From a virus: a DNA stretch of 64,000 bases. Under the pieces are notes generated by a model that searched no databases, was not told the DNA's origin, and worked only from the letters and a program-made list of their open reading frames with translations. Below, one piece after another: positions 7,298-27,565 of the stretch; within the stretch, counting starts at the first letter, position 1, and every line of letters starts with the position of its first letter. A program made the translations under genes and the position numbers. The stretch covers positions 32,001 through 96,000 of the IMG/VR virus record IMGVR_UViG_3300020156_000448; one strand, written 5' to 3'.

Positions 7298-7310
7298 TTA
7301 TCACCCCTTG

Positions 7311-9935: not shown

Positions 9936-9937
9936 AG

Positions 9938-11446
9938 TTATCGTAAATTATCTATAATTTTTTCTGCACAAATTTGCATCTTTTGGTAAATTTCTTCTGT
10001 GCGTTGAGCAATGGTGTCAGAAGCCTCCACATAAGAAGGAAAATGCTTTTGAAAAGCATCAGAGTATACATCTTTATCTTGATCCTCATACATGTAAATT
10101 CCTTGCCCAATAAAATGATTAACAATTTGAACTTGGTCTCTAAGTCTCTCAATCATACTTTTAGTTTCTGGGTCATTCATATCTGCTCCATTTTCAAGTA
10201 AATGTCGCATAATGTATGTAGTTTCATCAATTTCTACGCTAGCCTCGAAGGTTGGGACTAAATCGATGTTGTTTTCTAGTTTGTAGGCTGCGTGCCCATC
10301 AAACGAACCATAAAATTCATAGTTCGCAATTTGATTAGCTAATGCGTGAGCCTCAATTTCATCTACAAAAGATTCATTTTTAATCGATTCAATACAACTA
10401 ACTACTCCCGCAATAAACTTAGAATTTACGCTCAGATGTGTCACTAGCTTTTCAATCTTGTCGTAATTAAAATTACCGTCCTCATATAGGTTGGTACTTA
10501 TATAACTTACTAGTATATTATCCTGATCAACTAGGTCATCTATAGAGAAGCCGCCCACATCGTTTTGCATAACAATATCTGCATCTGTTGTTTTAGCTAA
10601 AAGTTCTAGCCTTGATTTATAATGTTCTAGATTAACTTTATTTTGTTCCCATAATTGATTAATCACTTCTGCATCAAGAGGCATATTGGGATGCAAGCCT
10701 CTTGGGTTATTTTTTCTATAGTTAGCCCCCACCTCTTTGACCAAAGAGTTGTTTAAATCTACTCTAAATTCTAACTCCCCATCGTCTGATCTTTGAGTAT
10801 ATATATTGGAAGCTGCTAATTCGGCATCTTCTTCAATGGTTTCTTTCGTTGAAGAATAGTCTATAGCGCCCAATACGGTCTTTCCAAACCAACTTCCGAA
10901 TAAATTATGATCATGTTTAGCATCTATTGGCTCAGTGTTTGTGTTTAAAGAAATATCTATTAAGTTCTGATCATTATCATCTAAGAACGCTGTCTCTCCC
11001 TCTTCGAGTTCAGCAACATATTCACTCTTTTTGGCAACTCCGTCAATGATGACATCATCAAATAACTCATAAATTCCAAAGGCTCGCAACAACAATACTA
11101 CTGGCTGAGCGTCATCGGAAACACCCTGCTTATCGCTTGCAGAGACAATATATAGATTTTTACCCTTACTTTTTAAGGAAAGCAATTGCTCTTTAAAGCC
11201 TTTTTCTAATTTGACCTTGCTACCTTTTGAATCTTCAATTAAAGTGTTGCTAATGAGCTTATATGGCGCTTCTGTGGCAGCAGCATATGATAGACCACCT
11301 TCAGGATTAGTGACTTCCCAAATTGTGTCATCGGCGTCGAAGATGATTGTATCATATTCGTTCAAATCATAACCTGCTACCTCTGTAGGTTTCATGTTCA
11401 TCTGAGTTAGCAATTCACTAACATCATCATTTCTATTACTTGGCAT
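9938..11446 (-). CDS. HAD-superfamily (Mdp-1-like) phosphatase fused to an unknown C-terminal domain
   Basis: Motif I IIFDADDTIW, motif II VSAS, motif III KK, motif IV FLDDND; start moved to ATG 11446 (GGAG RBS) from the ORF-track start 11503. Confidence 0.7.
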   Translation of the reverse strand: MPSNRNDDVSELLTQMNMKPTEVAGYDLNEYDTIIFDADDTIWEVTNPEGGLSYAAATEAPYKLISNTLIEDSKGSKVKLEKGFKEQLLSLKSKGKNLYIVSASDKQGVSDDAQPVVLLLRAFGIYELFDDVIIDGVAKKSEYVAELEEGETAFLDDNDQNLIDISLNTNTEPIDAKHDHNLFGSWFGKTVLGAIDYSSTKETIEEDAELAASNIYTQRSDDGELEFRVDLNNSLVKEVGANYRKNNPRGLHPNMPLDAEVINQLWEQNKVNLEHYKSRLELLAKTTDADIVMQNDVGGFSIDDLVDQDNILVSYISTNLYEDGNFNYDKIEKLVTHLSVNSKFIAGVVSCIESIKNESFVDEIEAHALANQIANYEFYGSFDGHAAYKLENNIDLVPTFEASVEIDETTYIMRHLLENGADMNDPETKSMIERLRDQVQIVNHFIGQGIYMYEDQDKDVYSDAFQKHFPSYVEASDTIAQRTEEIYQKMQICAEKIIDNLR

Positions 11447-11912
11447 TGTATTTCTCCGATCCGCTATAAGCCTTTTCTTTAAGCTCCAATATGGCTTCTC
11501 CATGTTTCGTTACATCATGCTTTATTTCAAAAATTTTACCCTCTAAGCTCTCAATCGCCTTAGCATTATTATTAATCCTCACATCGTTGACGGTTGCTTT
11601 GGTCGATATTTCATGAATGTCTTTGCTAATTTCTTTATATTCTTCTTTGCCATTATAATTAAGGGTAATTAAAATACTCGCAATGCCAACAATAGCACAA
11701 ATGCCAGCAAATGCCAGATTTAGCCAACTATCGACACTAGGCTTCTGGGGCTTTTCATCAGCAGAGAGCATATTTTCTAATATTTTCTTAGCTAAATACT
11801 GATCGGTCATCTTACTAAAAAATTGTTTATTTCTAGTAATAGCCATGTCTAAGTCTTGGATATGCTCGTTAGCAGCCTCTAACTCTTCTATATTAATCTT
11901 CTTTTTATCCAC
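11436..11912 (-). CDS. single-pass membrane protein with coiled coil
   Basis: Hydrophobic segment WLNLAFAGICAIVGIASILITLNY followed by a heptad-rich tail. Confidence 0.55.
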   Translation of the reverse strand: MDKKKINIEELEAANEHIQDLDMAITRNKQFFSKMTDQYLAKKILENMLSADEKPQKPSVDSWLNLAFAGICAIVGIASILITLNYNGKEEYKEISKDIHEISTKATVNDVRINNNAKAIESLEGKIFEIKHDVTKHGEAILELKEKAYSGSEKYNAK

Positions 11913-11915
11913 GAC

Positions 11916-13139
11916 TTACCTCTGTTTGTTTATGCGATCACTGCCCTTTACAATCTTCTTGTCAACTGAAGCGAAAGTCTTCTGAAAGTCTTTCCATGAT
12001 TTAATTTTGCTAATTCTGTCTCTTCTTTGCTCCCGACGCTTACGGTTTCTGTATTCTTTACGTCGCTGGATTCTCTCGTACATATGAGTATTATTATAAG
12101 CTGTTTTATACCACGATTTAGTATCTTCAAGATACAAATGATCCTTAACTGTGGAGACAGTTCCCAACTGAGAATCTAGCAAATCAATTGCTGTAGTAGA
12201 ATCTATTAGGTCTTGTATATAAAGGCTTGCTAAAGCCTGCTGAAGATTATTCTTAATGTCAGTATTAAGTAAATCTTGATAAGCAAGACATAATTGCAAC
12301 TTGTTCGCTGTTTTATCCAAGCTACATAAAACATTAGAAGCAGCCATATACTTGATTCCCATTTGCCTCTTTATTGAATGATCAAATATTTCATGAGGAA
12401 TCGGAATAGTATCGTATAGCTTGTATTTTTTAAACATAGCATCCGCCTTCTCATTGTCTATATCAAAGATGTCTCTTACAAGATTTTCAACAAAGCGCTC
12501 ACTTCTATCTGCTGTAGCTTGTGGTAAAAGTCCTATGCCGTAAGGAATTTCCTTTTTAAGGTCTTCTGTTGGTTCTAGTTCAAACTCCAACTGAAAACGC
12601 ATCATTCTTAAAATAATAAATGGATTAAACTCAATGGCGCTTCTGGCTGGAATAGGAGTTCTAATAACCTTGTTCTTTATCAGGTCGTCATAGCCTTGAC
12701 CAGTAACATCCAAAAATTTCTCATTAATTACATCGTAGCACATGGTATCGATTGTAAAGTCTCTCTCATAAATATTCTTATAAAGAAAAGTAATCGGAAT
12801 TCCTAGGCGCTGCATTTCGCCTTCTATTGGAAAGTGCACATGAGGATTATCAATACTCTGAAATTCAAAGTTATAACCATTGCATACTATTTTTTTTGTA
12901 CCTGTGTACTCGTACACAATAGGCTCTCCAAGACCAAACCTCTTTGAAAAATCCTGCAAAATTGCTTCCATTTTTCCTTCACGCGAAATCACATCAAAAT
13001 CTTGAATATCTTCGACTGGAACACCAAGCAGCCAGTCGCGCACGAATCCACCAACAATCAATGGATAATCACCAACTGCCTTGCCTGACTGTGCCAGTTT
13101 TTGAAAAGCATCTACTAGATTTTGAGGTAAGTCGCGCAT
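11916..13139 (-). CDS. class II (CCA/poly(A)-polymerase family) nucleotidyltransferase with a divergent templating motif and basic C-terminal extension
   Basis: IVGGFVRDWLLG...QDFDV catalytic motif; ERDFTID; motif D reads EFNPFIILRMMRF instead of xEDPLRxLRxxRF; tail ERIQRRKEYRNRKRREQRR. Confidence 0.85.
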   Translation of the reverse strand: MRDLPQNLVDAFQKLAQSGKAVGDYPLIVGGFVRDWLLGVPVEDIQDFDVISREGKMEAILQDFSKRFGLGEPIVYEYTGTKKIVCNGYNFEFQSIDNPHVHFPIEGEMQRLGIPITFLYKNIYERDFTIDTMCYDVINEKFLDVTGQGYDDLIKNKVIRTPIPARSAIEFNPFIILRMMRFQLEFELEPTEDLKKEIPYGIGLLPQATADRSERFVENLVRDIFDIDNEKADAMFKKYKLYDTIPIPHEIFDHSIKRQMGIKYMAASNVLCSLDKTANKLQLCLAYQDLLNTDIKNNLQQALASLYIQDLIDSTTAIDLLDSQLGTVSTVKDHLYLEDTKSWYKTAYNNTHMYERIQRRKEYRNRKRREQRRDRISKIKSWKDFQKTFASVDKKIVKGSDRINKQR

Positions 13140-13140
13140 A

Positions 13141-13503
13141 TTATTTTCCTTTTAAGTGCGTAATATCAATCAAATCCCAAAATTTGGTTCCAATATGAAC
13201 ATTACGATCACTAAACCAATCTTTGCGTGTTTCAATAACATACTTAACATTATAGTCTTTTGAATTAACGGGCTGTTCCTGATTTGCTTCTAATTGAGCT
13301 ACGTGAACTAAAGAGCCACCCATGTCAAAGAAAGCCACATCAATAGGGAAAGAGACATTTTTATTCCAAAATGACTGCCTTGAAGGTCTATCAAAAACAA
13401 AAAGACCGCATTCATCATCGGGAAGAGGTTCACTAAACATTAACCCTTTTTCTCTATCTCTTTCATTAATTGCTAAAAGTGTTATTTTTAGTCTTCGTTC
13501 CAT
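13141..13503 (-). CDS. DUF192 family protein
   Basis: A.....REKGLMF...L..DE.GLFVF......FWNKNVSFPIDVAFFD...YVIE..WF signature. Confidence 0.85.
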   Translation of the reverse strand: MERRLKITLLAINERDREKGLMFSEPLPDDECGLFVFDRPSRQSFWNKNVSFPIDVAFFDMGGSLVHVAQLEANQEQPVNSKDYNVKYVIETRKDWFSDRNVHIGTKFWDLIDITHLKGK

Positions 13504-14165
13504 TCCTTAATAATTCTCCATTTTCCATTGTTATCTCTAACTATTTTTTCACCTTGATTTGGAGAAGGAAACTCCAAAGCTGGTGTATTTTGAGTGCTAC
13601 AAGTCTGAATAATATTCTTTAGGCAACGTGAAGTCTTAGATAAAGAAGAAGAATTATCAAGCATTAACTTAACCAATATTTCATGCCCTTTATCTGTCAA
13701 ACTTACGTCATGCCCAGCGCCCTTCAATAACCCCTGTGCCTTTAAGCGATTAAGCTCGTTATCTGAAAGGTTTGAAATCCTAAACACCTTCTCTGGGGCG
13801 TTACTTGAATCTTGGATAATGCTTGCACTATCCCACGCTTTAAAAAGTAAACTCTTATCCTCTTCGGCTGTTACTTGATGAAATCCATTTGATTTCATAA
13901 TTTGTTCAAGAAGAGGGGAAACATTAAAATACATGACCCCATCACCACTGGCTGTTGGCGCTGAGGAGTTATTAAGAACATAATCAACCAAGCTTCTTTG
14001 ACCCATATTAGACCACTGGAGCTTATCTGTTATATGTTGAGATGGACCCTGCATGGTATTTTGGTCAAAACCATGAGCAGGAAAGAAGTTTTGTGCAACC
14101 TTTACCATTCCGTTCTTTTGCGCAACACGTTGCTGATGTGCATTGGGAGTTCTAAAAAAACGCAT
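13488..14165 (-). CDS. hypothetical protein with a possible winged-helix segment
   Basis: ELNRLKAQGLLKG....VSLTDKGHEIL resembles a wHTH wing; N-terminal RVAQ and KVAQ motifs. Confidence 0.5.
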   Translation of the reverse strand: MRFFRTPNAHQQRVAQKNGMVKVAQNFFPAHGFDQNTMQGPSQHITDKLQWSNMGQRSLVDYVLNNSSAPTASGDGVMYFNVSPLLEQIMKSNGFHQVTAEEDKSLLFKAWDSASIIQDSSNAPEKVFRISNLSDNELNRLKAQGLLKGAGHDVSLTDKGHEILVKLMLDNSSSLSKTSRCLKNIIQTCSTQNTPALEFPSPNQGEKIVRDNNGKWRIIKEWNED

Positions 14166-14206
14166 AATTCACCGCCATTAAAATTGATCTTGTTCTTATT
14201 ATACTA

Positions 14207-14232
14207 TTTAATGTATACAAATACAAAATCCT
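14207..14232 (-). promoter_or_regulatory. candidate SigH-type late promoter (weak)
   Basis: Minus strand CAGGA-N18-TAAA followed by TAGTATAAT, in the only sizeable intergenic gap of the NTase cluster. Confidence 0.35.
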
Positions 14233-14247
14233 GCGGGAACATTGGCG

Positions 14248-14985
14248 CTATATGATAAATTGCTCAAAACCATACTCTTGCAGCAATCTCTTTCCATTGT
14301 CTGGATTGGGCTTTAGTATTTTCTCAATAGTTTTTGAAGCCTTATCAATATCTATTTCAGTTAGAATATGTTCTCTATGTTTTCTAATGGCTGCATCAAG
14401 CTCATTATCTATAGTGAAATCATATCTGTTAGCAAAAACTAATGCTCGAAGAGCAATTATGGAGTTTGTCTTAACTGATAAATCTGCATTGACAGGACAT
14501 CTAATAATCCCATCATCCAAATCTTTTTTTGCCGTACCTAATACGTCATAAATTTTACCGCTTCTCAAGCTCATGATTAATGTATTTATAGTAAAATCAC
14601 GAGAAATAATATCAAAACTTAAATTGTTTTGGGGAAGATTGGTTTTTCTTAACTCAGGAAGAAGATCAAAGTTTTTTAAATTAGCCTTACAATCAATGTC
14701 CAAGCCATTGACACTAAGTTTTCCTGTACCTGTTTTATGGCTATATTCAACAGGAACACCAAATCTCTCTGCTACCGCGCCTGCTAGATAAAGACCGTGA
14801 TAATTTTCCGCCATAAGGTCAATATCGCTTTCACGTGTATGTTCTTTGCCCCAGTATTCATCTCTGCAAAATCCACCTACTGCAAATGCAATGAATCCTA
14901 AAGAATGCGTAATTTCGTCTATTCCGTTTAGCACAGAATAAACAACTGCTTCCTCTTGGCTTTTTGGCTTTTTATTTATTGGCAT
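14248..14985 (-). CDS. minimal class II (CCA/poly(A)-polymerase family) nucleotidyltransferase with a divergent templating motif
   Basis: AVGGFCRDEYWG...SDIDL; SRDFTINT; motif D reads KTNSIIALRALVF; head and neck plus a short body only (245 aa). Confidence 0.82.
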   Translation of the reverse strand: MPINKKPKSQEEAVVYSVLNGIDEITHSLGFIAFAVGGFCRDEYWGKEHTRESDIDLMAENYHGLYLAGAVAERFGVPVEYSHKTGTGKLSVNGLDIDCKANLKNFDLLPELRKTNLPQNNLSFDIISRDFTINTLIMSLRSGKIYDVLGTAKKDLDDGIIRCPVNADLSVKTNSIIALRALVFANRYDFTIDNELDAAIRKHREHILTEIDIDKASKTIEKILKPNPDNGKRLLQEYGFEQFII

Positions 14986-14994
14986 TCATATCAC

Positions 14995-15417
14995 CTATTT
15001 AGAGCCTCTAACAATACCTTTTTTATCCAAAGCTTCGTTTGCCCAATCTCTAATAGTGCCATTGTTTAAATGATTTACAAGCTCCATTGCATTAAATCGT
15101 TTCATTACAAGTGGAACGTTACACATTAAAGCTTCTCTAAATATGTCGTCCTTCGGCTCGCATCCTGATATAAATACAGCCTTGTGACTCAAACCCATTT
15201 TATGTAATTCGTTATATACATCTATGCCACTTATTCCATTGAGATAGAGATCAATTATATAATAATCTACCAAAGGTTCGAATCTACCATCTTGAACTGT
15301 CTTCAATGCTTCTTGAGCACTGCTTACAAATTCAGTCTCATGACCCAGCGCTTTAAACATTTCGGACAATGTAAAAGCTGTCAGTTCGTGATCATCTATG
15401 ATGCATACTTTTAGCAC
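14995..15417 (-). CDS. single-domain (CheY-like) response regulator
   Basis: IIDDHE acidic pocket, phosphoacceptor in IIDLYLNGISG, FISG, conserved Lys in MKRF; no output domain. Confidence 0.9.
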   Translation of the reverse strand: MLKVCIIDDHELTAFTLSEMFKALGHETEFVSSAQEALKTVQDGRFEPLVDYYIIDLYLNGISGIDVYNELHKMGLSHKAVFISGCEPKDDIFREALMCNVPLVMKRFNAMELVNHLNNGTIRDWANEALDKKGIVRGSK

Positions 15418-15430
15418 AATTCACTCTCCA

Positions 15431-16957
15431 TTAATCCTTGTTAATCCTTATACTAAAGACTGTGTTTCCAGGCTCACTACTCTCTAGATTTAGTTCCATA
15501 TTGGCATTAGAAGCAAATACCTTGCTCAAATATAATCCTAAGCCTGTACCTGGAACTTCTCTAAAAGGTCTAAAAAAAGGATTAAACAAACGGTATTGAA
15601 GATTTGATGGGATGCCTCTACCATTATCCCTAACTTGAATTAAGTAATAATCTTCATTCTCTACAACATCAACTACTATCTTGCCTTCCTTTCTACTATA
15701 CGCCTTATCTTTATAGCTTGCAATAGCCTTTCTTGCATTGCTCAGCAAATTGATAACAACCTGTCTTAATATGTTATTTGCAGCAATTGCTCTAATTGAA
15801 GCAGGACCATTATATAATATCTTGATTTGGTTTTCTTTATAATCGGAACTTAGACAATATGTTTTAATAGTTTCCTGTAGTAAAACCGCTAAGTCTACTT
15901 CTTTTGTGTCACCTATTATAGCTTGTATTATATCTTCTTCAGTATTGTAACCCCGAATACTTCCAAAGCTCATAATGTTGCCTACAATTGTTTCAATAGA
16001 ATTTGCCGATTGTTTGATTGCTTGCAGGTATTCTAATTTCTTATCCGCTTCTAGGTCAATCAGTCCTTTGACATTACCTATTAAAAGATCAGCAGCGTTA
16101 TCTATTGCCTGAACTGGTGATCTTGTTTCATGAGTAATGCCAGAGATGAATGAATTAATAGCAGTAATTGTAAACTTTTGCATCTCTAAACCAAGAGTAT
16201 CCTTGAACTCGTTTAATTCTTGAACTGGATTTCTTATGGCTAATCCAGCAATATATATATCTCCTCTATAGCAATTAAAAGGGAATTTGAATACGAGCCA
16301 ACTAACCATGTCTCCTGTAGCATCTGGAACTTCTTCAAACAACTCTACGGGAACGTTTCCCTTAAGCATCATTTTGTCATGTTCTACTAATTCGGCTGCT
16401 ACACTTTTAGGGAATAAATCAAAATCGGTTTTACCAATTACTTCCTCTACTGAACTTCGTGCAAGTTCAGCAAATCTCTTATTGACATAAATGTACTCAC
16501 CTTTGCTATTTTTCATAAAAGCTATTGCTGGACTGTTTTCCATAAAGCTTTCAAACAAAGATTGACTTCTTCTTAATTCAAGATCGGCTTTAACTCGTTG
16601 TGTAATATCTTGGATAAAACGATAATGACCTTGAAAGACCATATCCTCATTATAGCATGCTACAATAACTAGGCGTTTATAATATACTTCACCGTCCTTT
16701 TTGACGCCCTTTAGTTCTAATTCGGTTTTACCATCTTGCAGCATCTTTTCAATAGCGCTATTGGCTTCATTATGACAATCTGGATGAATCGTGGTCGTCC
16801 ATGGCTTACCAATTAACTCATTCATATCATAACCACATATATTCGCGTAGGACATATTCAAGGAAATGTATTCTCCCTCAGCATTAATCAATGCTATTCC
16901 ATCCAATGCGTGCATCATAATATTATTGAATTGATAAAGACCCTCATTCTTATCCAT
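15431..16957 (-). CDS. cytoplasmic PAS-PAS sensor histidine kinase
   Basis: Two PAS/PAC repeats (…QDITQR…); H-box ITHETRSP; N-box QVVINLLSNARKA; G1 DNGRGI; F-box LFNPFF; G2 GTGLGL; no TM segment. Confidence 0.93.
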   Translation of the reverse strand: MDKNEGLYQFNNIMMHALDGIALINAEGEYISLNMSYANICGYDMNELIGKPWTTTIHPDCHNEANSAIEKMLQDGKTELELKGVKKDGEVYYKRLVIVACYNEDMVFQGHYRFIQDITQRVKADLELRRSQSLFESFMENSPAIAFMKNSKGEYIYVNKRFAELARSSVEEVIGKTDFDLFPKSVAAELVEHDKMMLKGNVPVELFEEVPDATGDMVSWLVFKFPFNCYRGDIYIAGLAIRNPVQELNEFKDTLGLEMQKFTITAINSFISGITHETRSPVQAIDNAADLLIGNVKGLIDLEADKKLEYLQAIKQSANSIETIVGNIMSFGSIRGYNTEEDIIQAIIGDTKEVDLAVLLQETIKTYCLSSDYKENQIKILYNGPASIRAIAANNILRQVVINLLSNARKAIASYKDKAYSRKEGKIVVDVVENEDYYLIQVRDNGRGIPSNLQYRLFNPFFRPFREVPGTGLGLYLSKVFASNANMELNLESSEPGNTVFSIRINKD

Positions 16958-16964
16958 TTTACTC

Positions 16965-17444
16965 TTAGTGTGGTCCTCCTGTATATCCAGTTACGTTTTC
17001 TCCACCAATGATGTCGCTTTCAACGTCTCTGTTGTGAGACCAACTTCCAGGATTACCCTTAGAATAATCTGTTTTAGGATTAAATCTAGGCTGTCTACGT
17101 ATGCGTCCATCATACTTAGGATTACCCTTGCTATGGACTTCTTCTTTTTCTATCTTTCCTGTGCCATCGCAAACTTCGCATTGTGGGTTCATTCCATAGC
17201 AGCGTTTGCATGGCTTTTCTACCTTGATTTTACGGGAGCCATTAGGCTTTGTGCCTTTATCTGTTCCGTGCTCTTCTGTCATAGAGGGTTGAAGTTTTTG
17301 TTTATAGTTAATTACTCTCTCAGTGTCATATTCTGGATCGCTGCCAAAAGTATTATTCTCAGACCAAGGCGTAGCAATGCCTTGCCCATTATATTGAGCT
17401 TCAATTTGGTTTGCTATTATTTGAAATGCTTTTTTAAGACCCAT
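16965..17444 (-). CDS. hypothetical protein with a DnaJ-type zinc finger
   Basis: CKRCYG...CEVCDGTGK (CxxCxGxG-type pair). Confidence 0.6.
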   Translation of the reverse strand: MGLKKAFQIIANQIEAQYNGQGIATPWSENNTFGSDPEYDTERVINYKQKLQPSMTEEHGTDKGTKPNGSRKIKVEKPCKRCYGMNPQCEVCDGTGKIEKEEVHSKGNPKYDGRIRRQPRFNPKTDYSKGNPGSWSHNRDVESDIIGGENVTGYTGGPH

Positions 17445-20400
17445 TTATTCCCCCATGAACATAGGCATACGGCTGGTGATATTGTTTTCATAACCAGTAA
17501 GGTTTACCCTATATTTTTCATTATGTCTCAAAAAGTCCATTACAGACATCAAGTTACCGAATTTAATTGGCTTATCTGGTCTATCATAAGCTCTCATCAT
17601 ATAATTTCCAGATTGTTCATCTTGATAAAAATACAACATTCTTCTATGACCTTTATCAATGTTTTCTGGACGCTCTCTGCCAGAGTCCATATCAATCTCA
17701 AATTTGAATTTATAATTCGGGTATTCCTTATCGTGTAATTGGTCCAAATTTTGATGATTATTATTTCCTGGGGTCAACCTACTTGGATCAGCATCAGGAA
17801 TTGGCTCAGGACTAATTGGATATAGAGAATTCATTAGCTGTGCTGATTTAACGCTTGCGTAATAATCTCTCATAGGTTCTGCTGGATTAATATTGCCATG
17901 CATAGAAGATGGATTAGGGGTAAGCACAATGGATTTACGTGGTCGGTCTTTTGGTTGATCTTTAACCTGACCTTTGCCGCCTCCAAGATTAACCTCATTA
18001 GCTTTATCATCAGAATTCCATCTATTTGATCTTGGCTGAGTTTTCATTACAGGATAAATATCTTTAGCAATCTTTCTAAACATAGAAGTCATAGACGCGA
18101 GAGTATTCTTAGATGCTTCTTGCTTAATAAAGCTGGCTGCTTCTTCTTTTGAATTAACTCTTTTTTGCATCTGCGCCCTCACAAGGTTACTAATAAGTGT
18201 GTTCATCCAAGCTCCAGGTTTAATGTCTGGATTTACTTCTTTAACGATATTAAGAATTTCGTTTCCATTTAATAATGGTGTAATTACTTGTTTTCCTTCA
18301 TCTTTAATATTGCGATAGTTAGAGTACAACACCTCTTCAACTGCGCCTTTATCTACAGCAATAGCAGGATTGACCAAGATAGGCAGAATAGACAGAAGCC
18401 AACTACCTGCTGGCTTGCCTGTAATTTCTGCTGCCAGCGCTAATTTCTTCACTATATCGAAAGCTTGATTTCTGCTTGTAATTTTCTGGTCAATTTGCAA
18501 ATCAACAAGCTGTTTGTTTAGTAACCCAATCCATCTCAAATCCTTCGAAATCATGCTTCCAAATAGGGTCATTATTTCATTGCCATTGATAAATGGAGTC
18601 AATCTGCCTTGAATTCTCTGGAGACCGCCATTCTCATCCTGCTGTAAATGCTGTAGTGCAGCAACAAGATAATCATCTGTATTTCCAGGCTCTTTATGAG
18701 CGCGTCTATCAGCCATAGCTAACATAAGAAGATCAAAGATTTCATCATTCATCTTTTTGCCATATGCGCCCTTCATTGTAATCAATAGTCTTCCAAGCTG
18801 CGACTCAAGTTGAGTAGGGTCATTGATGACTTTATCAAGTCCTAGAACCTCATCATGCATTTTTACCAATGTGCTAATATTGGTAATTTCTTCCGTTGAG
18901 AATTTTAAACGCTGCAAATTAGCAAGAGTCTGCTCTGTCGATATTTCAGGGTGCCCAAAGTATCTTCTTTTTGAGACATTGCCTTCGCCATCGAACTCTT
19001 CCTGATAGCCTTTATCACCTTTAAACAATTTGCCTACATCATGAAATAATGCAGCCATATTGAGAGTAAATAACTTTTGAGGGTCTTTCACTCCATGTTG
19101 TTGTACCACTTGCTGCAAATGACTCATAACAGTCATTGTATGATCCCAAATGGATTCGTAGTGGTGTGGGTTCAAATGATCCATATCCCAGTTCTGCTCT
19201 GCCTGAACGGGAAGCTTTAACACAAATTGAAGGAGTCCACATTCCTTCATGAGCTTCAGGCTTTGTGCTGCGTTCGGAAGACTCATAATTTTTCTGAATT
19301 CTTCAGCTACTCTTTCGGCAGAAAGCTTTGGAGTATAATCATATTTCCAAAATTCAGAGTCTAATTCGTCGCCTTTTACGCCAATTAGATGTGGATTTTG
19401 TTTTATATAATCTACAATTGGGCTATCGATTTTAAAATCATGCTGGGCTGCTTGCCTAATTGCACGTAAAATACGAAGCGGGTCATCTTGAAAAATAGTA
19501 TCAATGGCGCTTGGGTCAGTGATTCTGATTGTTTTTTCCTGCACGTCTTGTAGCCCATGTCCTGTTGGATCATGAAGCGCACCCTCTATATCGCCTTGAA
19601 TATATTTATCGAGATCAAGGAACATAGCATTCATGCCAAAATCTCTGCGATTGGCATCCTCTTGAAAATTACCCATCTCTGTTCTTGGTTTGCGGCTTCC
19701 AGGTTCATATCTTTCTGTGCGAGGATATGCAATTTCCACCTCTCCAATTGGAGTAGGGACAGCATAAATACCGAAGGCTTCGCCTCTAGGAATTTGCCTT
19801 CCAAATTGCTTTGCTAATAATAAGCTGGGATTTATCGATGTTTCGAATGGGGCATTAGATATTAGCTGTGGTTTCTTTTTAGAATTATCCATATAATCAA
19901 TATCGGCGGTAATTCTAAAAAACTCTGATCTATAGTCAGATTGTTCTAAATTAAAGCTATTAACACGAACGAGCTTCTTTGCGCCCTCAAGATTATTTTG
20001 TATAAAACTCATTGGATCGCGCTGTGCTTCATCAATGAATGGCTGAATCTGTCTCATGTAAGTCTCAGTATCAGCTACATCCACCATAATATCTAAATCT
20101 TTTGGAGATTTTTTGCCAACCAATAAATCACGAACAAATCCGCCAGTAGCATATGGAACTAGTCCAACGGCACGAGACTTCTCAACAATATCTGATATCA
20201 CCTCCATATACTCTTGAGGAATGCTTATTTGTCTATTGTAAGCCTGTGCAAAATTAAACAGGTATCTTGCAAATGATCCTGTTTTTTTCATGTTTTTTGC
20301 ACCAGCCATCCATACCCAATCAGGTCCATATTCTTGATCCATATCCGCTACAAACCCACCAAGCTCCTCTGCTTCTTCAGGAGTAACTGTGGGTTTTTTA

Positions 20401-23400
20401 TTTGGTAAGCCAACACTCAACGAAAGCTCTTTTTTAGCATAATCAATAATAAAATCATACATAGATTGTGGTATGACATCACTGAAAATTTCATTCTTAC
20501 TATATTCGCTCGCATTTGATAAGGAAGCTGGAGGATCAAACATATACATTAATAAATCTGGCAATGTAAAAATCTGCCTAGGAACATTGGAATTCTTATG
20601 CAAGTATATTGAGATAGAGTCTCGCATACCGCCTTGAACAAATTGATCCACTTTGACTTTAATCCCATTGACCATTTGCTGGAAATCAGGTCTTTTCTGA
20701 ACATTAGATATAAATTCATCCCTAGTATTAGGGAGAGTTAACATCGTATTTTCTTCTGGTGGGATAACCTTGTTTGGAAACGTTACGAGTTTTTTGCCTT
20801 GATCAAACTCTAGCCTTTCCTGAGTTTTAGACTTAAGATACTGCTGCATAAAATATTTAGCAAACATATGCGTTAGATTCTGAATTTGCTGTTCTCTAGG
20901 AACTTTTTTTCCTGATTCAAATACGCTCTGCTCATATTCTACAAGCATCTCTCCCACAGTTTCCATCGCTGCTTCTCTATTCATTCCTTGAAACTCGATA
21001 GGGAAATTTTCGATAAGTTCAGATTTTATTTGCTCATTCATTCCTGCCGTAATTCGTGCATCAAAAGGGAATTGAGAATTGAAGAAAGCATATAACCTTT
21101 GTTTCATATGCTGAAGATTACCGTATTGAAACGCTAAAAGCTCAGTTGGCTCCGTTATCCATCCTCCAGCGGTTTGATAGTTACTGCTATCATCAATACC
21201 CACTCCAGTTAAATGGTGACTAACCTCATGCCATAAAGTATTTTCTTCTGAAAACGAAATGGTTTTGTCTTCTGGCTTAATACCTAAAAATTTCTCAAGA
21301 TTTTCAGCAGCATTTACCATGTCGTTTTCAGTTACGTCGCCTTTGGTAAAAACGAAAATTGTTGGATTGTCAGCGATCCCATATGATGGAGAATAAAACC
21401 CATTCATTTGGTATGGGCTATATCCCGCGTTTGCTAAATCTTCTGCTCCGAAGTGGCTAATAAATTTTTGACTGTCAACTAGATAAATATCCAATTCTTC
21501 AAGCTTGTTCATAGCAATTTCATAAGCTTTCTTATAATTACGTTTCCCATCATCATCGCGCCCAGTAAATACTTCTTCAGTATTATCTGTATATCTTTGT
21601 AGAAATGTTTTACAATACTCCATCAATTCAGGGAAGTCACTTACTTTCTTTTTGACCACGCCATTTTCCGCTGCTAAATATGATTTCATTCCTTCTCGCA
21701 CATCGTTTTTTGCTTTGGCGGTTTGGTGTCTTATTTCAGCACGAAGAGTATTTAAAAACTCTTGATCATTCTCATCTCTAGTTGTAATTGCAGAAATGAC
21801 CTTTAGTGCATCTGTCATATATCTTTTGGTGGTCTCGTAGACTACTTCGGGTGAAAATAACCCTGAACACAAAACAAACCACACCTGAGAGGCTTTTGCC
21901 ATTGAGTCAATAATTTTAGGCGGAAATGCTGCCATGATTTCCATGGTTGCATTAAAATCACTATCTAGTGGTCTGCTCCAATGTGGTGGATTATCAGGAT
22001 CATAATCTTCTTCCTTGGTTGGATTATTGCCACTTATAATCATGGAAGCCAAGAAGCTGCCTGCACTCTGAGTATATTTCCGAATTATAGCATGCTTAGA
22101 CATGTCTATATAAAAATTTTCCACTGCCAAATACTCGCCAGCGGCTTCTCTTGCCTTCGCAGTATCCAACTCTTTATAAAACCACTCTTTAAATGCTTGA
22201 GCTTTTTGCGGACCTGGAGCAAGACTACTATCTATCATTCTAGAGGCGGCAGATGCTTCAATAGCACTAAAAAAATATCTATCGTTTTCGAGTTTGGAAT
22301 CATAAAAGTTAACATAATCTTCGTACATGTTTCCAAAAGGATGAATTTGCCTGTTGTCTTCATCAATTAAAACAAGATTACCCTTGTATTGTTGCGCCTC
22401 TTCAGTGCTCTTGGAGTATCTTTCAATCTCACTTTCAGAGCTAGTAATTGATAGGCTTGCATCCTCTGGATATACTGATACTGTTTCTTTTAATTTTGCA
22501 AGAGTTTCTTCCTTAAAATTTACGCCACAAACAATGAACATTTCCGCTTGGATTGTATTATTGACATCTTTGTAATAATGAGACTTTGTTTCAGGATCGT
22601 GGAATTCTACTAATCCCTGTTGCTTGGCATTAAATAACCCATCTATAATTGAAATTATTTCTTGTGGCGTTTTTGAATAGAAAGGATAGCCTGCGCCTAA
22701 TTTCTCTTCTCCAACTCTTTGAAGTACCTTATGTTCAAAAGAACCATAGTTATATATGGCAGGAAGAATACTAGAATGGAAATCTCGTATTTTTTTATTC
22801 TCTCCCTTGTCACGCTCGCCTATCGGATATCCATCACTGTGCTTATACCCGATTCTCAGAGATTCTGTAAGCTCCATCAGCGCTTCAGGAGTAGGGAAGC
22901 TGAAGACGCGCTGCATTAAATCATATTTGGAATTAGCATCAGTAGAAAATATGGAATTCCATATTTCAGGATGGCGTTGACTCAATTCATCAACCATCCA
23001 TTTTGGATATCTATTAATACTCGAAAATACTCCGATGGCTGACTTGGGAGAAATCTCTAGCGTCATTATGTCTTTATATATATCATCTGTAAGACTATTA
23101 GGTATATCGGTTTTCCATTTTCCATTCCTATACATCTTGGAGGCATCTTCGTCGTGCACTTTAAACAACGACCATAAAGTAAACGCTTCTTGTTCTGGCG
23201 TACCCTTAGTTCTTCCTAGATATTTTTGAGCCAAATCCCAGTAATACCAGCCACCAAGAACATCTCTTTCCATAGCCAAACTTAACTTGTACTGACTAAA
23301 ATAATAATGATTGGGATATTTTTGAAAAAGAATACAGTCTATAACAGTATTTGTATGGGAATCTAAACCGAACTTTGTCACTGTAGATAAAATCTCTGGT

Positions 23401-23522
23401 GGAGCAGTATTTTCATCATACTTCATATACTCTTCTGCATCAAACGACTGAACACCGCGAAAGAAATCATCCGCGCCTGCGAGCATGATCATTTTATTGA
23501 AAATATTATTAGATTTTCCCAT
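17445..23522 (-). CDS. giant multidomain protein: unknown N-terminus + HEXXH zincin-like domain + CCA-adding enzyme with HD domain and duplicated tail domain
   Basis: LWHEVSH (about 21216-21230) with downstream PTE; TGGFVRDLL...DLDI (about 20130); loop RTERYEPGSRKP; EDANRRDFGMNA; FQDDPLRILRAIR (about 19480); HD motifs HTM, FHDVGK, GHPE, MHD, ADRRAH; two [FL][IL]NGNEI tail repeats. Confidence 0.85.
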   Translation of the reverse strand: MGKSNNIFNKMIMLAGADDFFRGVQSFDAEEYMKYDENTAPPEILSTVTKFGLDSHTNTVIDCILFQKYPNHYYFSQYKLSLAMERDVLGGWYYWDLAQKYLGRTKGTPEQEAFTLWSLFKVHDEDASKMYRNGKWKTDIPNSLTDDIYKDIMTLEISPKSAIGVFSSINRYPKWMVDELSQRHPEIWNSIFSTDANSKYDLMQRVFSFPTPEALMELTESLRIGYKHSDGYPIGERDKGENKKIRDFHSSILPAIYNYGSFEHKVLQRVGEEKLGAGYPFYSKTPQEIISIIDGLFNAKQQGLVEFHDPETKSHYYKDVNNTIQAEMFIVCGVNFKEETLAKLKETVSVYPEDASLSITSSESEIERYSKSTEEAQQYKGNLVLIDEDNRQIHPFGNMYEDYVNFYDSKLENDRYFFSAIEASAASRMIDSSLAPGPQKAQAFKEWFYKELDTAKAREAAGEYLAVENFYIDMSKHAIIRKYTQSAGSFLASMIISGNNPTKEEDYDPDNPPHWSRPLDSDFNATMEIMAAFPPKIIDSMAKASQVWFVLCSGLFSPEVVYETTKRYMTDALKVISAITTRDENDQEFLNTLRAEIRHQTAKAKNDVREGMKSYLAAENGVVKKKVSDFPELMEYCKTFLQRYTDNTEEVFTGRDDDGKRNYKKAYEIAMNKLEELDIYLVDSQKFISHFGAEDLANAGYSPYQMNGFYSPSYGIADNPTIFVFTKGDVTENDMVNAAENLEKFLGIKPEDKTISFSEENTLWHEVSHHLTGVGIDDSSNYQTAGGWITEPTELLAFQYGNLQHMKQRLYAFFNSQFPFDARITAGMNEQIKSELIENFPIEFQGMNREAAMETVGEMLVEYEQSVFESGKKVPREQQIQNLTHMFAKYFMQQYLKSKTQERLEFDQGKKLVTFPNKVIPPEENTMLTLPNTRDEFISNVQKRPDFQQMVNGIKVKVDQFVQGGMRDSISIYLHKNSNVPRQIFTLPDLLMYMFDPPASLSNASEYSKNEIFSDVIPQSMYDFIIDYAKKELSLSVGLPNKKPTVTPEEAEELGGFVADMDQEYGPDWVWMAGAKNMKKTGSFARYLFNFAQAYNRQISIPQEYMEVISDIVEKSRAVGLVPYATGGFVRDLLVGKKSPKDLDIMVDVADTETYMRQIQPFIDEAQRDPMSFIQNNLEGAKKLVRVNSFNLEQSDYRSEFFRITADIDYMDNSKKKPQLISNAPFETSINPSLLLAKQFGRQIPRGEAFGIYAVPTPIGEVEIAYPRTERYEPGSRKPRTEMGNFQEDANRRDFGMNAMFLDLDKYIQGDIEGALHDPTGHGLQDVQEKTIRITDPSAIDTIFQDDPLRILRAIRQAAQHDFKIDSPIVDYIKQNPHLIGVKGDELDSEFWKYDYTPKLSAERVAEEFRKIMSLPNAAQSLKLMKECGLLQFVLKLPVQAEQNWDMDHLNPHHYESIWDHTMTVMSHLQQVVQQHGVKDPQKLFTLNMAALFHDVGKLFKGDKGYQEEFDGEGNVSKRRYFGHPEISTEQTLANLQRLKFSTEEITNISTLVKMHDEVLGLDKVINDPTQLESQLGRLLITMKGAYGKKMNDEIFDLLMLAMADRRAHKEPGNTDDYLVAALQHLQQDENGGLQRIQGRLTPFINGNEIMTLFGSMISKDLRWIGLLNKQLVDLQIDQKITSRNQAFDIVKKLALAAEITGKPAGSWLLSILPILVNPAIAVDKGAVEEVLYSNYRNIKDEGKQVITPLLNGNEILNIVKEVNPDIKPGAWMNTLISNLVRAQMQKRVNSKEEAASFIKQEASKNTLASMTSMFRKIAKDIYPVMKTQPRSNRWNSDDKANEVNLGGGKGQVKDQPKDRPRKSIVLTPNPSSMHGNINPAEPMRDYYASVKSAQLMNSLYPISPEPIPDADPSRLTPGNNNHQNLDQLHDKEYPNYKFKFEIDMDSGRERPENIDKGHRRMLYFYQDEQSGNYMMRAYDRPDKPIKFGNLMSVMDFLRHNEKYRVNLTGYENNITSRMPMFMGE

Positions 23523-23542: not shown

Positions 23543-24205
23543 TTAATTTCCTTGTTCATTGTATACGAATCTTATCTTATTTTTCTTTAAAAGATTCTTG
23601 ATTGGATCAATTGCGATACCAACACTTATTCCTTGTGAGTCGGTGTTTTTAGAGTTAAGCACAGCTACAGCTATGCCTATAACAGCTTGCTTTTCTAGAG
23701 AATATATCAAACCACCAGAATTTCCAGGATTAGTTCTTAAATCCAGCAAGAAATAATTATCACTTTGACCATCTTGTGCCATGTTGGTGTTAGAAACAAT
23801 TCCATAAGAAACTGTATTCTTATAACCCAAAGGGCTTCCTACAGAAACTACTGCTTCTCCCTCTTGGATTGTTCCGCTATTACCAAGATTTAGAAAGTAA
23901 GTATTAACTTGAGAAGGAGCATTAACATATACAATTGCAACATCCATATTAAGATCATAGTCTACAACTTGGGCATAAAATCTCCCGCCATCAGTTGTGT
24001 TTACGACTATGGATTTAATATCAGGATTTGGTTGCTGTGGGGTTATTCCCAAAACATGAGCACATGTAATAACAATTCTAGGGGCGACAAAAAAGCCTGC
24101 CCCTATATCTCCTGCATTTGAAGCCATATGGACTTCAATCATTACACTGGAGCTTTTGATTTGACTTACATAGTCACTCATTTTTTGAGCGGTCTTTAAA
24201 GCCAT
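23543..24205 (-). CDS. trypsin-like (S1C/HtrA-type) serine protease, no PDZ domain or signal peptide
   Basis: Catalytic triad motifs ITCAHV, DVAI, NPGNSGG; VGSPLG..NTVS.GIVS. Confidence 0.9.
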   Translation of the reverse strand: MALKTAQKMSDYVSQIKSSSVMIEVHMASNAGDIGAGFFVAPRIVITCAHVLGITPQQPNPDIKSIVVNTTDGGRFYAQVVDYDLNMDVAIVYVNAPSQVNTYFLNLGNSGTIQEGEAVVSVGSPLGYKNTVSYGIVSNTNMAQDGQSDNYFLLDLRTNPGNSGGLIYSLEKQAVIGIAVAVLNSKNTDSQGISVGIAIDPIKNLLKKNKIRFVYNEQGN

Positions 24206-25597: not shown

Positions 25598-27565
25598 TTA
25601 AGCGCCACCATTATATGAATTAAAGTTATTCATTCTCTGAAATATAGATTGCCCAGCTCCGCCGCGATTTCCTGCACCATTTCCAGAAATGCTTGGGAAT
25701 TGATTTCCACCCAAAGGAAGATTCATAACTCTAGATGTTAAAGCCTTTCTTGAGGTTCTTTCAGTACTTAAAAAACATGCTCCTGCAAAGCAGTCAGCGA
25801 CATCCTTAGTTTTAACTACTCCTGCATGATTCGCAACAATATTTGGTCCTCTAGCTGTTCGCTTAACTCTTAAGTTCTGCAATTCAACCTTTAATTGTAA
25901 ATCATTTTGACAAGCAATTACTCGCCCATCCAACATAATTGTTCTTAGGTTGTCATATATCTCACGAGCTTTATTACCATTGAATGATAGCAATCTTACA
26001 GGCAGTCCTCTTCTTCTAAAAAAGCTTATAGATTCAGTACTTTGCATACCATCATAAGAGAATGAAACTACTCTGAACTTCCTTGCTACATCAGCAATGT
26101 AATGAAGTATCTCATTAATTGTATACTCCTTACCTGTCTCATTATCCACAAAATGTTCTGGATTTCTTTTGGATGGAGTCCAGAAAAAACTATCATCCTC
26201 GATATAGAAATTTTCATATTGATTAGTTTTAGGATTAAATCTATACTCGTAATGGATAATACAATAAGCGTAATTACAAGTTTTAAAAGCGCAGTCGATA
26301 TGCATATAATATTTAATCATTGCATTTTCAGGACCAGGTTTCTTAGCGATATTTTCTGGATTAGCAAATGCGTATTCCACAGCAGTTTCTGGAAGATAAA
26401 CATCTGCACCTTCGTCTACAAACTGAGCACCAAATAGCTTATCGAATGATAAACCTTCAGCATCCTCTTCGTAGATCATATCGCTTTCTAAGAATTCCTT
26501 GGTCATGTCATTTCTCCACTCCCAAGTAGGCATCTGAATTACTAAAAAGTTATCAGCCTGAGGAAGTCTACCTTGATCAAAGTTCGTCCAAAACTTCCCT
26601 TCTTTTTTATTAGGCATTGATGTCATCATAACTCTACCAGCCTCTGGATGAAGAGCACGGTAGGTTGTCGTCTGCGCCAAGATAGCTTCCAAGAGCTTTG
26701 TATCGTTATCTTTTCCGTCTGTATTAAAAAGCGCAAACTCATCGAAATAAGCGAGAATGGTAGCAGTTCCGTGGAGGGCTGCTGAATTAGAGTGAATAGC
26801 TGCAACTTCAATAGAACCCTTCAGTTGAACGTTATGCATCCCCATTGCTTTTTGTCTTTTGTATCTCTGCTCATCAAATTCAGTCCTATAGAATACGGTT
26901 TCTTCTTCTGGAGTATATCTAGCTTCTAGCAAAGGACTTTCCATTGCACGTTCCTTGTGCATTTTAAGACCAGTGTTTTTAGCCTGCGTTAAACTCGTTG
27001 CTGCTATAAATATACGAAGTGGCTCTGCTCCGCGCACGCCCAAATATCCTTGAGGATGATTTAAGCATTTAGAACCACAATCAGGACAAAGCTCTCCGCT
27101 TTGCACCGGCTTCATGTCCTTACATTTAGGACATACTATCATAGTAATAAGTTTATATACCTCATAAGCTGTTATAGCGCTACTAAGGAAGGTCTTTCCT
27201 GAACGACGCCCTAGTGCCATAACTAAATACTGAAATGGTTTTGTGATCTCTCCGCTTTGTACCTTTTTAGCCTTAGCCAAAAGCCAAGGATTGCCTTGAC
27301 CATAATTATCAATCTTCTCAATAAGCTCAAGGTCTTCGTCAGTAATTTTTATACTTTCGTTGCCAGGAGTATTGATATAAAATAATTTAAGAATTAGTTT
27401 AGCGTATGGGAAAACACCAAAATCTAAACCTAAGTCTTCCACAAACTGCAATATACTCATCAAGCCTGATGACGATGAACTCTTTTTCTCGTATAGCTTT
27501 TTCTTTACCATGTCCGCAAGCATTTGATCTAAATCAATTACTTCGGACTTATTTTTAGCTGCCAT
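25598..27565 (-). CDS. terL: terminase large subunit with a zinc-ribbon insertion
   Basis: Walker A LGRRSGKT, Walker B AYFDEFA, coupling MTSMP, nuclease YMHIDCA ... KDVADCFAG; CPKC..CPDC insertion after Walker A. Confidence 0.88.
   Translation of the reverse strand: MAAKNKSEVIDLDQMLADMVKKKLYEKKSSSSSGLMSILQFVEDLGLDFGVFPYAKLILKLFYINTPGNESIKITDEDLELIEKIDNYGQGNPWLLAKAKKVQSGEITKPFQYLVMALGRRSGKTFLSSAITAYEVYKLITMIVCPKCKDMKPVQSGELCPDCGSKCLNHPQGYLGVRGAEPLRIFIAATSLTQAKNTGLKMHKERAMESPLLEARYTPEEETVFYRTEFDEQRYKRQKAMGMHNVQLKGSIEVAAIHSNSAALHGTATILAYFDEFALFNTDGKDNDTKLLEAILAQTTTYRALHPEAGRVMMTSMPNKKEGKFWTNFDQGRLPQADNFLVIQMPTWEWRNDMTKEFLESDMIYEEDAEGLSFDKLFGAQFVDEGADVYLPETAVEYAFANPENIAKKPGPENAMIKYYMHIDCAFKTCNYAYCIIHYEYRFNPKTNQYENFYIEDDSFFWTPSKRNPEHFVDNETGKEYTINEILHYIADVARKFRVVSFSYDGMQSTESISFFRRRGLPVRLLSFNGNKAREIYDNLRTIMLDGRVIACQNDLQLKVELQNLRVKRTARGPNIVANHAGVVKTKDVADCFAGACFLSTERTSRKALTSRVMNLPLGGNQFPSISGNGAGNRGGAGQSIFQRMNNFNSYNGGA

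Follow-up and report, generated by a model that had tools for sequence, protein, structure and literature searches.

A giant phage protein in which a recurrent module with a zincin-like HEXXH domain is joined to a predicted CCA-adding/HD enzyme

The window analyzed here, a stretch of 64,000 nucleotides (bases 32001-96000) from the 125,053-base virus record IMGVR_UViG_3300020156_000448 (G000; provirus class, completeness estimated at 76%), carries on its minus strand (17445-23522) a real open reading frame (ORF), free of internal stops, for a protein of 2025 amino acids (aa), P0001, which we call the giant protein. It is modular and its domains are conserved: an N-terminal module of about 1000 residues, which usually occurs as a protein of its own and bears a zincin-like HEXXH domain, is followed by what is predicted to be a complete CCA-adding/HD enzyme with a doubled tail element. 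With a probability of roughly 0.55, we interpret it as a single polyvalent-type phage protein, born of the end-to-end fusion of two complete genes, one half of which would repair tRNA while the other would act as a peptidase. An earlier note on this DNA had proposed such a fusion of a zincin-like domain with a CCA-adding/HD enzyme and a duplicated tail; the fusion holds up, and all the sequence elements quoted there were found at their places in the protein. A GAGG lies 14 nt ahead of the first ATG of the gene. The features are collected in Table 1.

The C-terminal half, residues 1097-1700, appears to constitute a complete class II CCA-adding/HD enzyme that runs from a natural N-terminus to a natural C-terminus, because residue 1 of the solved chain 4wby aligns with residue 1097 and the chain 3wfo_A aligns from the head via the HD domain to its residue 502 of 525, where the first tail element ends. 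3wfo_A was deposited as ‘Poly A polymerase’ and is presumably an Aquifex CC-adding enzyme; other solved CCA-, CC- and A-adding enzymes likewise match this half. The Pfam models for the PolyA_pol head (PF01743; 62.8 bits against a cut-off of 23, split into two stretches), for PolyA_pol_RNAbd (35.2 bits against 22) and for the HD domain all score above their cut-offs, which bears out the description of a complete CCA enzyme with an intact HD domain in the earlier note. A PHROG of tRNA nucleotidyltransferases matches residues 1245-1626 (E 5.7e-42), and positions 75-459 of the 466 in TIGR02692, the NCBIfam model of the actinobacterial CCA enzymes, fall on residues 1247-1689. Motif A is seen as GGFVRD at residue 1127 followed by DLD, motif B as RRDF at residue 1292, where it aligns with the RDF of the solved enzymes, and the HD signature as HDVGK at residue 1494 in a region aligned with the HD domain of 3wfo_A. 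As in the class II CCA-adding/HD enzymes represented by 3wfo_A, TIGR02692 and the phage family phrog_2244, the head, neck and body, HD and tail regions follow one another in the same order, and the GG...DxD, RRD and D-x-x-R residues are present. Judged by its sequence, this half may be compatible with CC-adding, A-adding or poly(A) activity.

Unlike the class II CCA enzymes, the version in the giant protein sits behind 1096 foreign residues, has a split head and a second copy of the tail, and is followed by 220 further residues. The split is due to an insertion of about 70 residues (1166-1235) that falls between the DxD strand and the next strands of the PolyA_pol head; the CCA units of two relatives described below, P0014 and P0017, have a contiguous head without it. 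The two tail copies (residues 1641-1700 and 1747-1806) share 17 of 58 aligned residues (29%; E 1e-8), as the earlier note had recognized by their similarity, and a profile made from both copies finds only one weak copy each in four other CCA units, namely those of P0014, P0017, the giant protein of locus L018 and a separate gene of locus L006. According to the earlier note, the doubling might alter how the tRNA is measured. The MFRKIAK segment, regarded in the earlier note as a second linker, is indeed found at residue 1814. Beyond it, residues from about 1830 to 1930 are rich in P, N and K, and the last 90 or so look ordered by eye. The last 220 residues have no paralogue within the record and no match in the related loci, and a search of the ESM Atlas with residues 1821-2025 returned nothing.

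In the N-terminal half, the region comprising residues 618-910 is consistent, if weakly so, with a zincin-like domain. The segment LWHEVSH begins at residue 763, and its HEVSH (residues 765-769) is the only HExxH of the 2025 residues, against an expectation of 0.06 from the composition of the protein. The weight of this evidence rests on the conservation of the motif rather than on its occurrence: in a 22-sequence alignment W764, H765, E766, H769 and E794 are all invariant, and in a 32-row alignment WHExxH is kept in all 27 rows that cover the site. An AlphaFold model of this region (predicted local distance difference test [pLDDT] 79, predicted template modelling score [pTM] 0.77) places the HEXXH on helix 757-772 and Glu794, 25 residues past the second His, on the next long helix (792-817), both behind five β-strands. 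This modelled arrangement of the HEXXH and Glu helices agrees with that of the zincin-like metallopeptidases as described in the main text of Iyer et al. 2017 (PMC5512222). 

Structure searches with the model point the same way at low scores. The top Foldseek row is 4l7a, a putative zinc metallopeptidase, with a weak, sub-noise E of 0.09. In a wide VIA fold search, eight of the nine rows that span both the sheet and the HEXXH helix are zincins with weak Z scores of 4.9-5.3 (ERAP1, the VgrG2b effector, lugdulysin, LTA4H, Wss1, AQ_1354 and two aminopeptidases N). A second fold look, biased in that its Foldseek prefilter relies on amino-acid identity, has zinc peptidases in 28 of its first 35 rows as counted from the entry titles (Z 3.9-5.1), and these are distributed over the nine MEROPS families M1, M2, M3, M9, M30, M34, M48, M49 and M78. 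The modelled region shares with gluzincins, such as the M1 enzymes ERAP1, IRAP and LTA4H, the M30 lugdulysin, the catalytic domain of the M34 anthrax lethal factor and the M78 PprI/IrrE, an HEXXH helix and a Glu helix behind a β-sheet. It differs from them in that its Z scores reach only 4.4-5.3 at 9-18% identity, in the lack of any sequence-profile match and in having the Glu 25 residues past the second His. We chose the name “zincin-like” because the motif features are present while the fold scores stay below the noise. The earlier note had named two findings that would count against its zincin-like domain, an unconserved HEXXH and a position outside a zincin fold; the motif is conserved in all 27 family rows that cover it and is modelled on the first of two helices that follow a β-sheet, and the fold matches over sheet and HEXXH helix are nearly all zincins, albeit weak ones.

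The HEXXH domain is embedded in a larger unit that extends over residues 1-1072 and defines a protein family of its own. An exhaustive HMMER search with residues 1-1090 against 1.84 billion representatives recovered 33 proteins at E<=1e-3 and 32 at E<=1e-10, the query itself being counted in both; all come from metagenomes, most are 1000-1100 residues long, and they align with the module either end to end or across its C-terminal 600 residues. No Pfam, PHROG or NCBIfam model covers the module. Word-index searches with the whole protein and with alignment A1 both returned only the query and recovered no family, and megablast of the gene against GenBank phages found no close DNA relatives. In a tblastn search of 50,697 GenBank phage records, the matches in the best 40 of the 89 matching records all fall within residues 1191-1693 and none in the module. 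No relative of the module was found in 72,556 plasmids; scanning one genome from each of 185,579 prokaryote species for the pattern gave 190 hits, of which 0 were confirmed; and the best score in the ESM Atlas was 0.82, below the 0.9 level of a lead. The AlphaFold model of residues 1-1090 (pLDDT 78.6, pTM 0.63) matched only long helical repeat proteins in a Foldseek search of PDB and BFVD, with template modelling scores of about 0.1. A wide VIA search with the whole module gave M13 peptidases at Z 5.5-6.5 amid helical noise, which we did not count as evidence. We also considered whether the N-terminal 440 residues might be a portal and found no support for this in any search made.

The module ends in a conserved C-terminal signature of the family, VTPxEAEExGxF...GPDWxW...NWYK. 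The earlier note had taken this stretch for a linker; its sequence was found where that note had placed it (WVWMAGAK... starts at residue 1069, window position 20318), yet it is no special linker and represents instead the conserved natural C-terminus of the module family. The joint behind it is probably flexible, because residues 1073-1090 are modelled at a pLDDT under 50. Of 30 members that reach the end of the module, 19 stop within 25 residues and one after 39. The other 10 are longer: in four of them a CCA/HD enzyme follows, in one a GNAT domain (P0030) and in five some other or unidentified tail. The module is the constant part of the family, and what follows its conserved C-terminus varies between nothing, a CCA/HD enzyme, a GNAT and other sequences. 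The four with a CCA/HD enzyme include the giant protein; the fragment P0028, which is 57% identical to it across the joint and runs into GGFVRD; and P0014 and P0017, which both have PolyA_pol, the RNA-binding region, HD and NucTran2_2 downstream of the module, P0017 having in addition an N-terminal C39-like peptidase. The tail of P0024 shows by eye a G-S...D-L-D pattern that BLAST aligned to motif A of the giant protein, and the tails of P0004, P0012, P0013 and P0019, 111-169 residues long, match no listed family. The distance between module and CCA enzyme is about 25 residues in the giant protein and about 260-300 in P0017, and it grows to about 800-1000 residues for P0014 and the giant protein of L018. 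In all, 4 of the 32 family clusters have acquired the CCA/HD enzyme, which lies behind the module at one of three distances.

Pattern scans yielded 16 related loci, two viral and fourteen metagenomic. In L018 and L020, a frame of 3631 codons carries both module and CCA enzyme; L005 encodes the 3703-aa P0017; and in L006 a stand-alone module of 1045 aa is two genes distant from a CCA/HD gene of 711 aa, which lies on the opposite strand. In L015 (4845-19193, plus strand), and also in L009 (6122-13135), the module lies in the middle of an open frame, at least 4783 codons long, that runs off the end of the contig; the L015 frame has no Pfam family at E<=0.01. Second HExxH motifs outside the shared module occur in the giant frames of L015 (residue 3125), L018 (residue 282) and L005 (residue 838), and these may, judging by the motif, represent further peptidase domains. 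In L014, one small gene downstream of a stand-alone module, there is a gene (6914-14440, plus strand) for a 2509-aa protein of collagen triple-helix repeats (Pfam Collagen, E 2.5e-196). Near the stand-alone module of L010 is a 522-aa ORF (14189-15754, plus strand) that is 45% identical to a protein of the Lak-A1 megaphage, is annotated elsewhere as a nucleotidyltransferase or as a thymidylate synthase, and has a segment like the intein endonuclease PI-PkoII. We did not count the neighboring ORFs of L010 and L016 as a further association with nucleotidyltransferases, the annotation in L010 being inconsistent and the others having no matches.

The polyvalent proteins, as portrayed in the main text of Iyer et al. 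2017 (PMC5512222), are long proteins of phages and plasmids in which unrelated enzymes are arranged around a zincin-like peptidase hub, whose proposed targets are either the chain itself, which it would process, or proteins of the host. The giant protein resembles them in being a very long phage protein that joins unrelated enzyme domains, in having homologs of varying architecture, in the zincin-like HEXXH and Glu as the constant element, and in its partners, the GNAT and the nucleotidyltransferases of the Pol-β superfamily; its family thus unites several unrelated catalytic domains with variable architectures, by which that class is recognized. It is unlike them in that the module has no Pfam match at all, that no MuF or other virion-anchoring domain was found, and that the peptidase forms part of a conserved unit, about 1000 aa in size, which occurs on its own as well. 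In the polyvalent-type interpretation, the enzyme half would restore the damaged 3′ ends of tRNAs, with the HD domain clearing blocked ends and the transferase rebuilding the CCA, and would thereby counter nucleases or toxins by which the host acts on these ends. The host tRNAs would be the likely substrates because the 125-kb record, 76% complete, encodes no tRNA. The peptidase half, in turn, would either cut the flexible joint (residues 1073-1096), freeing the enzyme, or attack host proteins. Self-cleavage of the giant protein is a tentative part of this scheme, to which we give somewhat less than an even chance, and its delivery inside the virion is rather doubtful. The most far-reaching version, in which the HEXXH module would serve large uncultured phages as a carrier-and-processing unit not described before, bringing the tRNA 3′-end repair enzyme in with the DNA and releasing it by self-cleavage, as a counter-defense against the stripping or blocking of CCA ends, strikes us as unlikely.

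A number of observations weigh against the polyvalent-type interpretation, and they concern both halves as well as their association. On the enzyme side, the HD model (PF01966) only just passes, with 22.5 bits for a cut-off of 22; TIGR02692 scores 125 bits, far under its equivalog cut-off of 438.8, and NF009814 reaches 77.4 of the 290 bits of its cut-off. By these scores the CCA half would be a divergent member of the superfamily and no equivalog. Motif D, whose canonical form EDxxR is the amino-acid template for CTP and ATP, here reads DDPLR, so that the Asp and the Arg are kept and the leading Glu is replaced by Asp. On the peptidase side, every fold score for a zincin lies below the noise level of the tool (Z under 8), the top Foldseek E being the 0.09 given above, and the weak Foldseek rows for the HEXXH domain also include Pol-β nucleotidyltransferases. 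The giant protein has no peptidase family match in Pfam or NCBIfam at E<=1 or in the PHROGs at E<=0.01; none of 32 family members scanned has a Pfam, PHROG or NCBIfam peptidase match over the module, the only peptidase matches among them being the unrelated C39-like and TPPII_C regions outside the module in two giant members; and the family profile found no solved peptidase among the PDB sequences. As for a virion connection, MuF (PF04233), portal (PF04860) and HK97 capsid (PF05065) families were not found in the 125-kb, 76%-complete record. Finally, a CCA enzyme is seen in or beside the module in only four lineages (the window, L005, L018/L020 and L006). Their association is recurrent and not universal, because the enzyme is absent from the examined flanks of L010/L011, L014 and L016 and from the whole of the L015 frame of at least 4783 aa.

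The main rival explanation has the giant protein working uncut in the cytoplasm as a multi-enzyme within a set of genes for RNA-end repair and modification, with the module serving as a scaffold or as a peptidase for host proteins such as tRNA-targeting defense nucleases, and with no self-processing. The gene neighborhood speaks for it. The 53 minus-strand ORFs of at least 120 aa in the window form one co-directional array in which, starting from the gene for the large terminase subunit, two unknown genes, the trypsin-like peptidase gene, the giant gene, a 159-aa gene, a PAS histidine kinase and a receiver follow one another, with two cut-down class II nucleotidyltransferases, a HAD-type phosphatase and the tail-fibre-like genes further down. 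Relatives of the window’s histidine kinase, small nucleotidyltransferase, 120-aa protein and HAD-type phosphatase surround the gene for module and CCA enzyme in L018/L020 as well (L018 3849-7133 and 20276-21286, compared with 9938-16957 in the window), in a different gene order. In L005, the gene for an RtcB-type ligase lies 4.5 kb downstream of the gene for P0017; it encodes an 870-aa protein (15896-18508, plus strand) with the RtcB region in residues 528-864 and an N-terminal extension of 500 residues. The targeting of host proteins is, as noted, one of the roles that the main text of PMC5512222 allows for the polyvalent peptidases. Against this, 19 of the 30 family members are the module alone and, because these are the majority, the module has a function for which no fused enzyme is needed; moreover, its varied C-terminal additions resemble swappable cargo and not a fixed machine. 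We regard this rival as the strongest, albeit still an unlikely one.

A second rival is the full form of the model in the earlier note, which had suggested a packaged protein that is cut on infection. Here the capsid would take up a polyprotein whose K-x-A-like linkers are cleaved either by the zincin within it or by a capsid protease, such that a metallopeptidase and a CCA enzyme are injected as separate proteins with the DNA. The position of the gene speaks for this model: the array from the terminase to the tail-fibre-like genes is tight, with gaps of at most 82 bp and without an intergenic terminator-like site on the minus strand, and the gene for the trypsin-like peptidase (Trypsin_2, E 1.4e-22) lies just 20 bp upstream of the giant gene. 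Promoter and terminator scans gave no excess over shuffled sequences. The joint modelled as flexible would offer a place to cut, and the packaging and processing of polyvalent proteins is documented as a theme by PMC5512222 in its main text. The likeness of the linkers to a K-x-A motif of the neighboring proteins, on which the proposed cutting relied, fell away on counting, as the motif is at chance level in the giant protein (9 seen, 9.0 expected), in 17 proteins of the late block (30 versus 33.1 in shuffles) and in 19 proteins of the early block (45 versus 42.1); the stricter [KR]-x-A-[SAT] occurs 7 times versus 9.5 in the late block and 16 versus 12.3 in the early block. None of the 16 related loci searched gave a hit to the upstream peptidase at E<=1e-4; its chymotrypsin-fold type would be unusual for a phage head protease. 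Head genes were not recognized either: besides the missing portal, MuF and HK97 capsid families, a PHROG scan of 10 large ORFs outside the window detected none, and what it did identify were replication genes, an endolysin, a glycosyltransferase, a metallo-phosphoesterase and a dehydrogenase. Among related records, the complete 96.8-kb G001 has its terminase matches at 91.2-95.1 kb and its giant gene at 0.3-11.4 kb, so that only a circular genome would make the two close neighbors, and in G002 the module is 33 kb from the terminase. Because these related records show mixed contexts, the signs of a head locus seen in the window do not hold in general. The sole neighbor of a related module that matches known phages, in L010, is non-structural, and two others are without matches. 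Taken together, the capsid-loaded polyprotein appears improbable to us. Although G000 is classed as a provirus, it has neither a tRNA gene nor a recognized portal or HK97-type capsid, and its module has no relative in the single genomes scanned from 185,579 prokaryote species.

A last alternative, that the HEXXH domain is a metal-dependent hydrolase of RNA or nucleotides, like YbeY of the same fold class, working with the nucleotidyltransferase on RNA ends, could draw on weak fold matches to 1oz9 (Z 5.0) and 1tvi (Z 4.0), titled hypothetical protein and TM1509 and which we take to be YbeY-type chains, and on the recurrence of the module with nucleotidyltransferases, both fused and neighboring, but it is very improbable, as the YbeY motif is HxxxHxxxxxH, the invariant HEXXH with a Glu 25 residues later is the signature of gluzincin peptidases, and most of the matching chains are peptidases.

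Table 1. Features of the giant gene, its protein and its surroundings (positions in the window).
Feature	Residues	Position	Strand	Remark
Giant gene P0001	1-2025	17445..23522	-	2025 aa; ATG start, uninterrupted ORF
P0002, public gene call of the same giant gene				start 10 codons later, 2015 aa
Family module	1-1072	20307..23522	-	usually a stand-alone protein of about 1000-1100 aa
Zincin-like domain	618-910	20793..21671	-	five-strand β region, then helices 757-772 and 792-817 (modelled)
HEXXH, H765-E766-V-S-H769	765-769	21216..21230	-	W764, H765, E766, H769 invariant
Glu794, candidate third zinc ligand	794	21141..21143	-	invariant
Family C-terminus (GPDW-x-W...) and joint	1066-1096	20235..20327	-	residues 1073-1090 at pLDDT under 50
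Predicted class II nucleotidyltransferase head, neck, body	1097-1440	19203..20234	-	GGFVRD...DLD, RRDF, DDPLR
Head insertion, ~70 aa	1166-1235	19818..20027	-	two separate Pfam stretches of PolyA_pol
HD phosphohydrolase domain (H...HD)	1459-1556	18855..19148	-	Pfam and solved-chain alignment
Tail element, copy 1	1641-1700	18423..18602	-	aligned to natural C-terminal end of 3wfo_A
Tail element, copy 2 (extra)	1747-1806	18105..18284	-	alignment to copy 1
C-terminal region	1807-2025	17448..18104	-	low-complexity stretch and last block of ~90 aa
Trypsin-like serine peptidase		23543..24205	-	220 aa; Trypsin_2; upstream of giant gene
Large terminase subunit		25598..27565	-	phrog_2, E 7.9e-14; 2 kb upstream, same tight array
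Class II-type nucleotidyltransferase genes		11916-13139; 14248-14985	-	downstream of giant gene
Tail-fibre-like genes		7311-9935	-	

Three things are new here. The first is the family of carrier modules of about 1000 residues, usually stand-alone, which in its 32 clusters is nameless in Pfam, the PHROGs and NCBIfam. The second is the doubled tail and split head of the CCA enzyme in the giant protein. The third is new to the polyvalent class as far as the main text of PMC5512222 goes, where the string ‘cca’ occurs 0 times, the supplements being a place where one may be listed: a complete CCA-adding/HD enzyme as cargo. CCA-adding enzymes are common among the RNA-repair genes of jumbo phages in the account given in the text of PMC7824862. 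The phage versions tend to be interpreted as free enzymes of RNA repair. In the giant protein, a complete one is predicted to be joined to a conserved protease-like module. The idea at stake, that zincin domains cut the polyvalent chain to free its enzymes, has long been assumed and rarely measured, and the giant protein offers a clean test case for it, because it combines a single candidate peptidase with a single flexible joint and a single cargo enzyme that is easy to assay. With three further family clusters carrying a CCA enzyme, the polyvalent-type interpretation would link the repair of tRNA ends to the counter-defense strategy of the polyvalent proteins.

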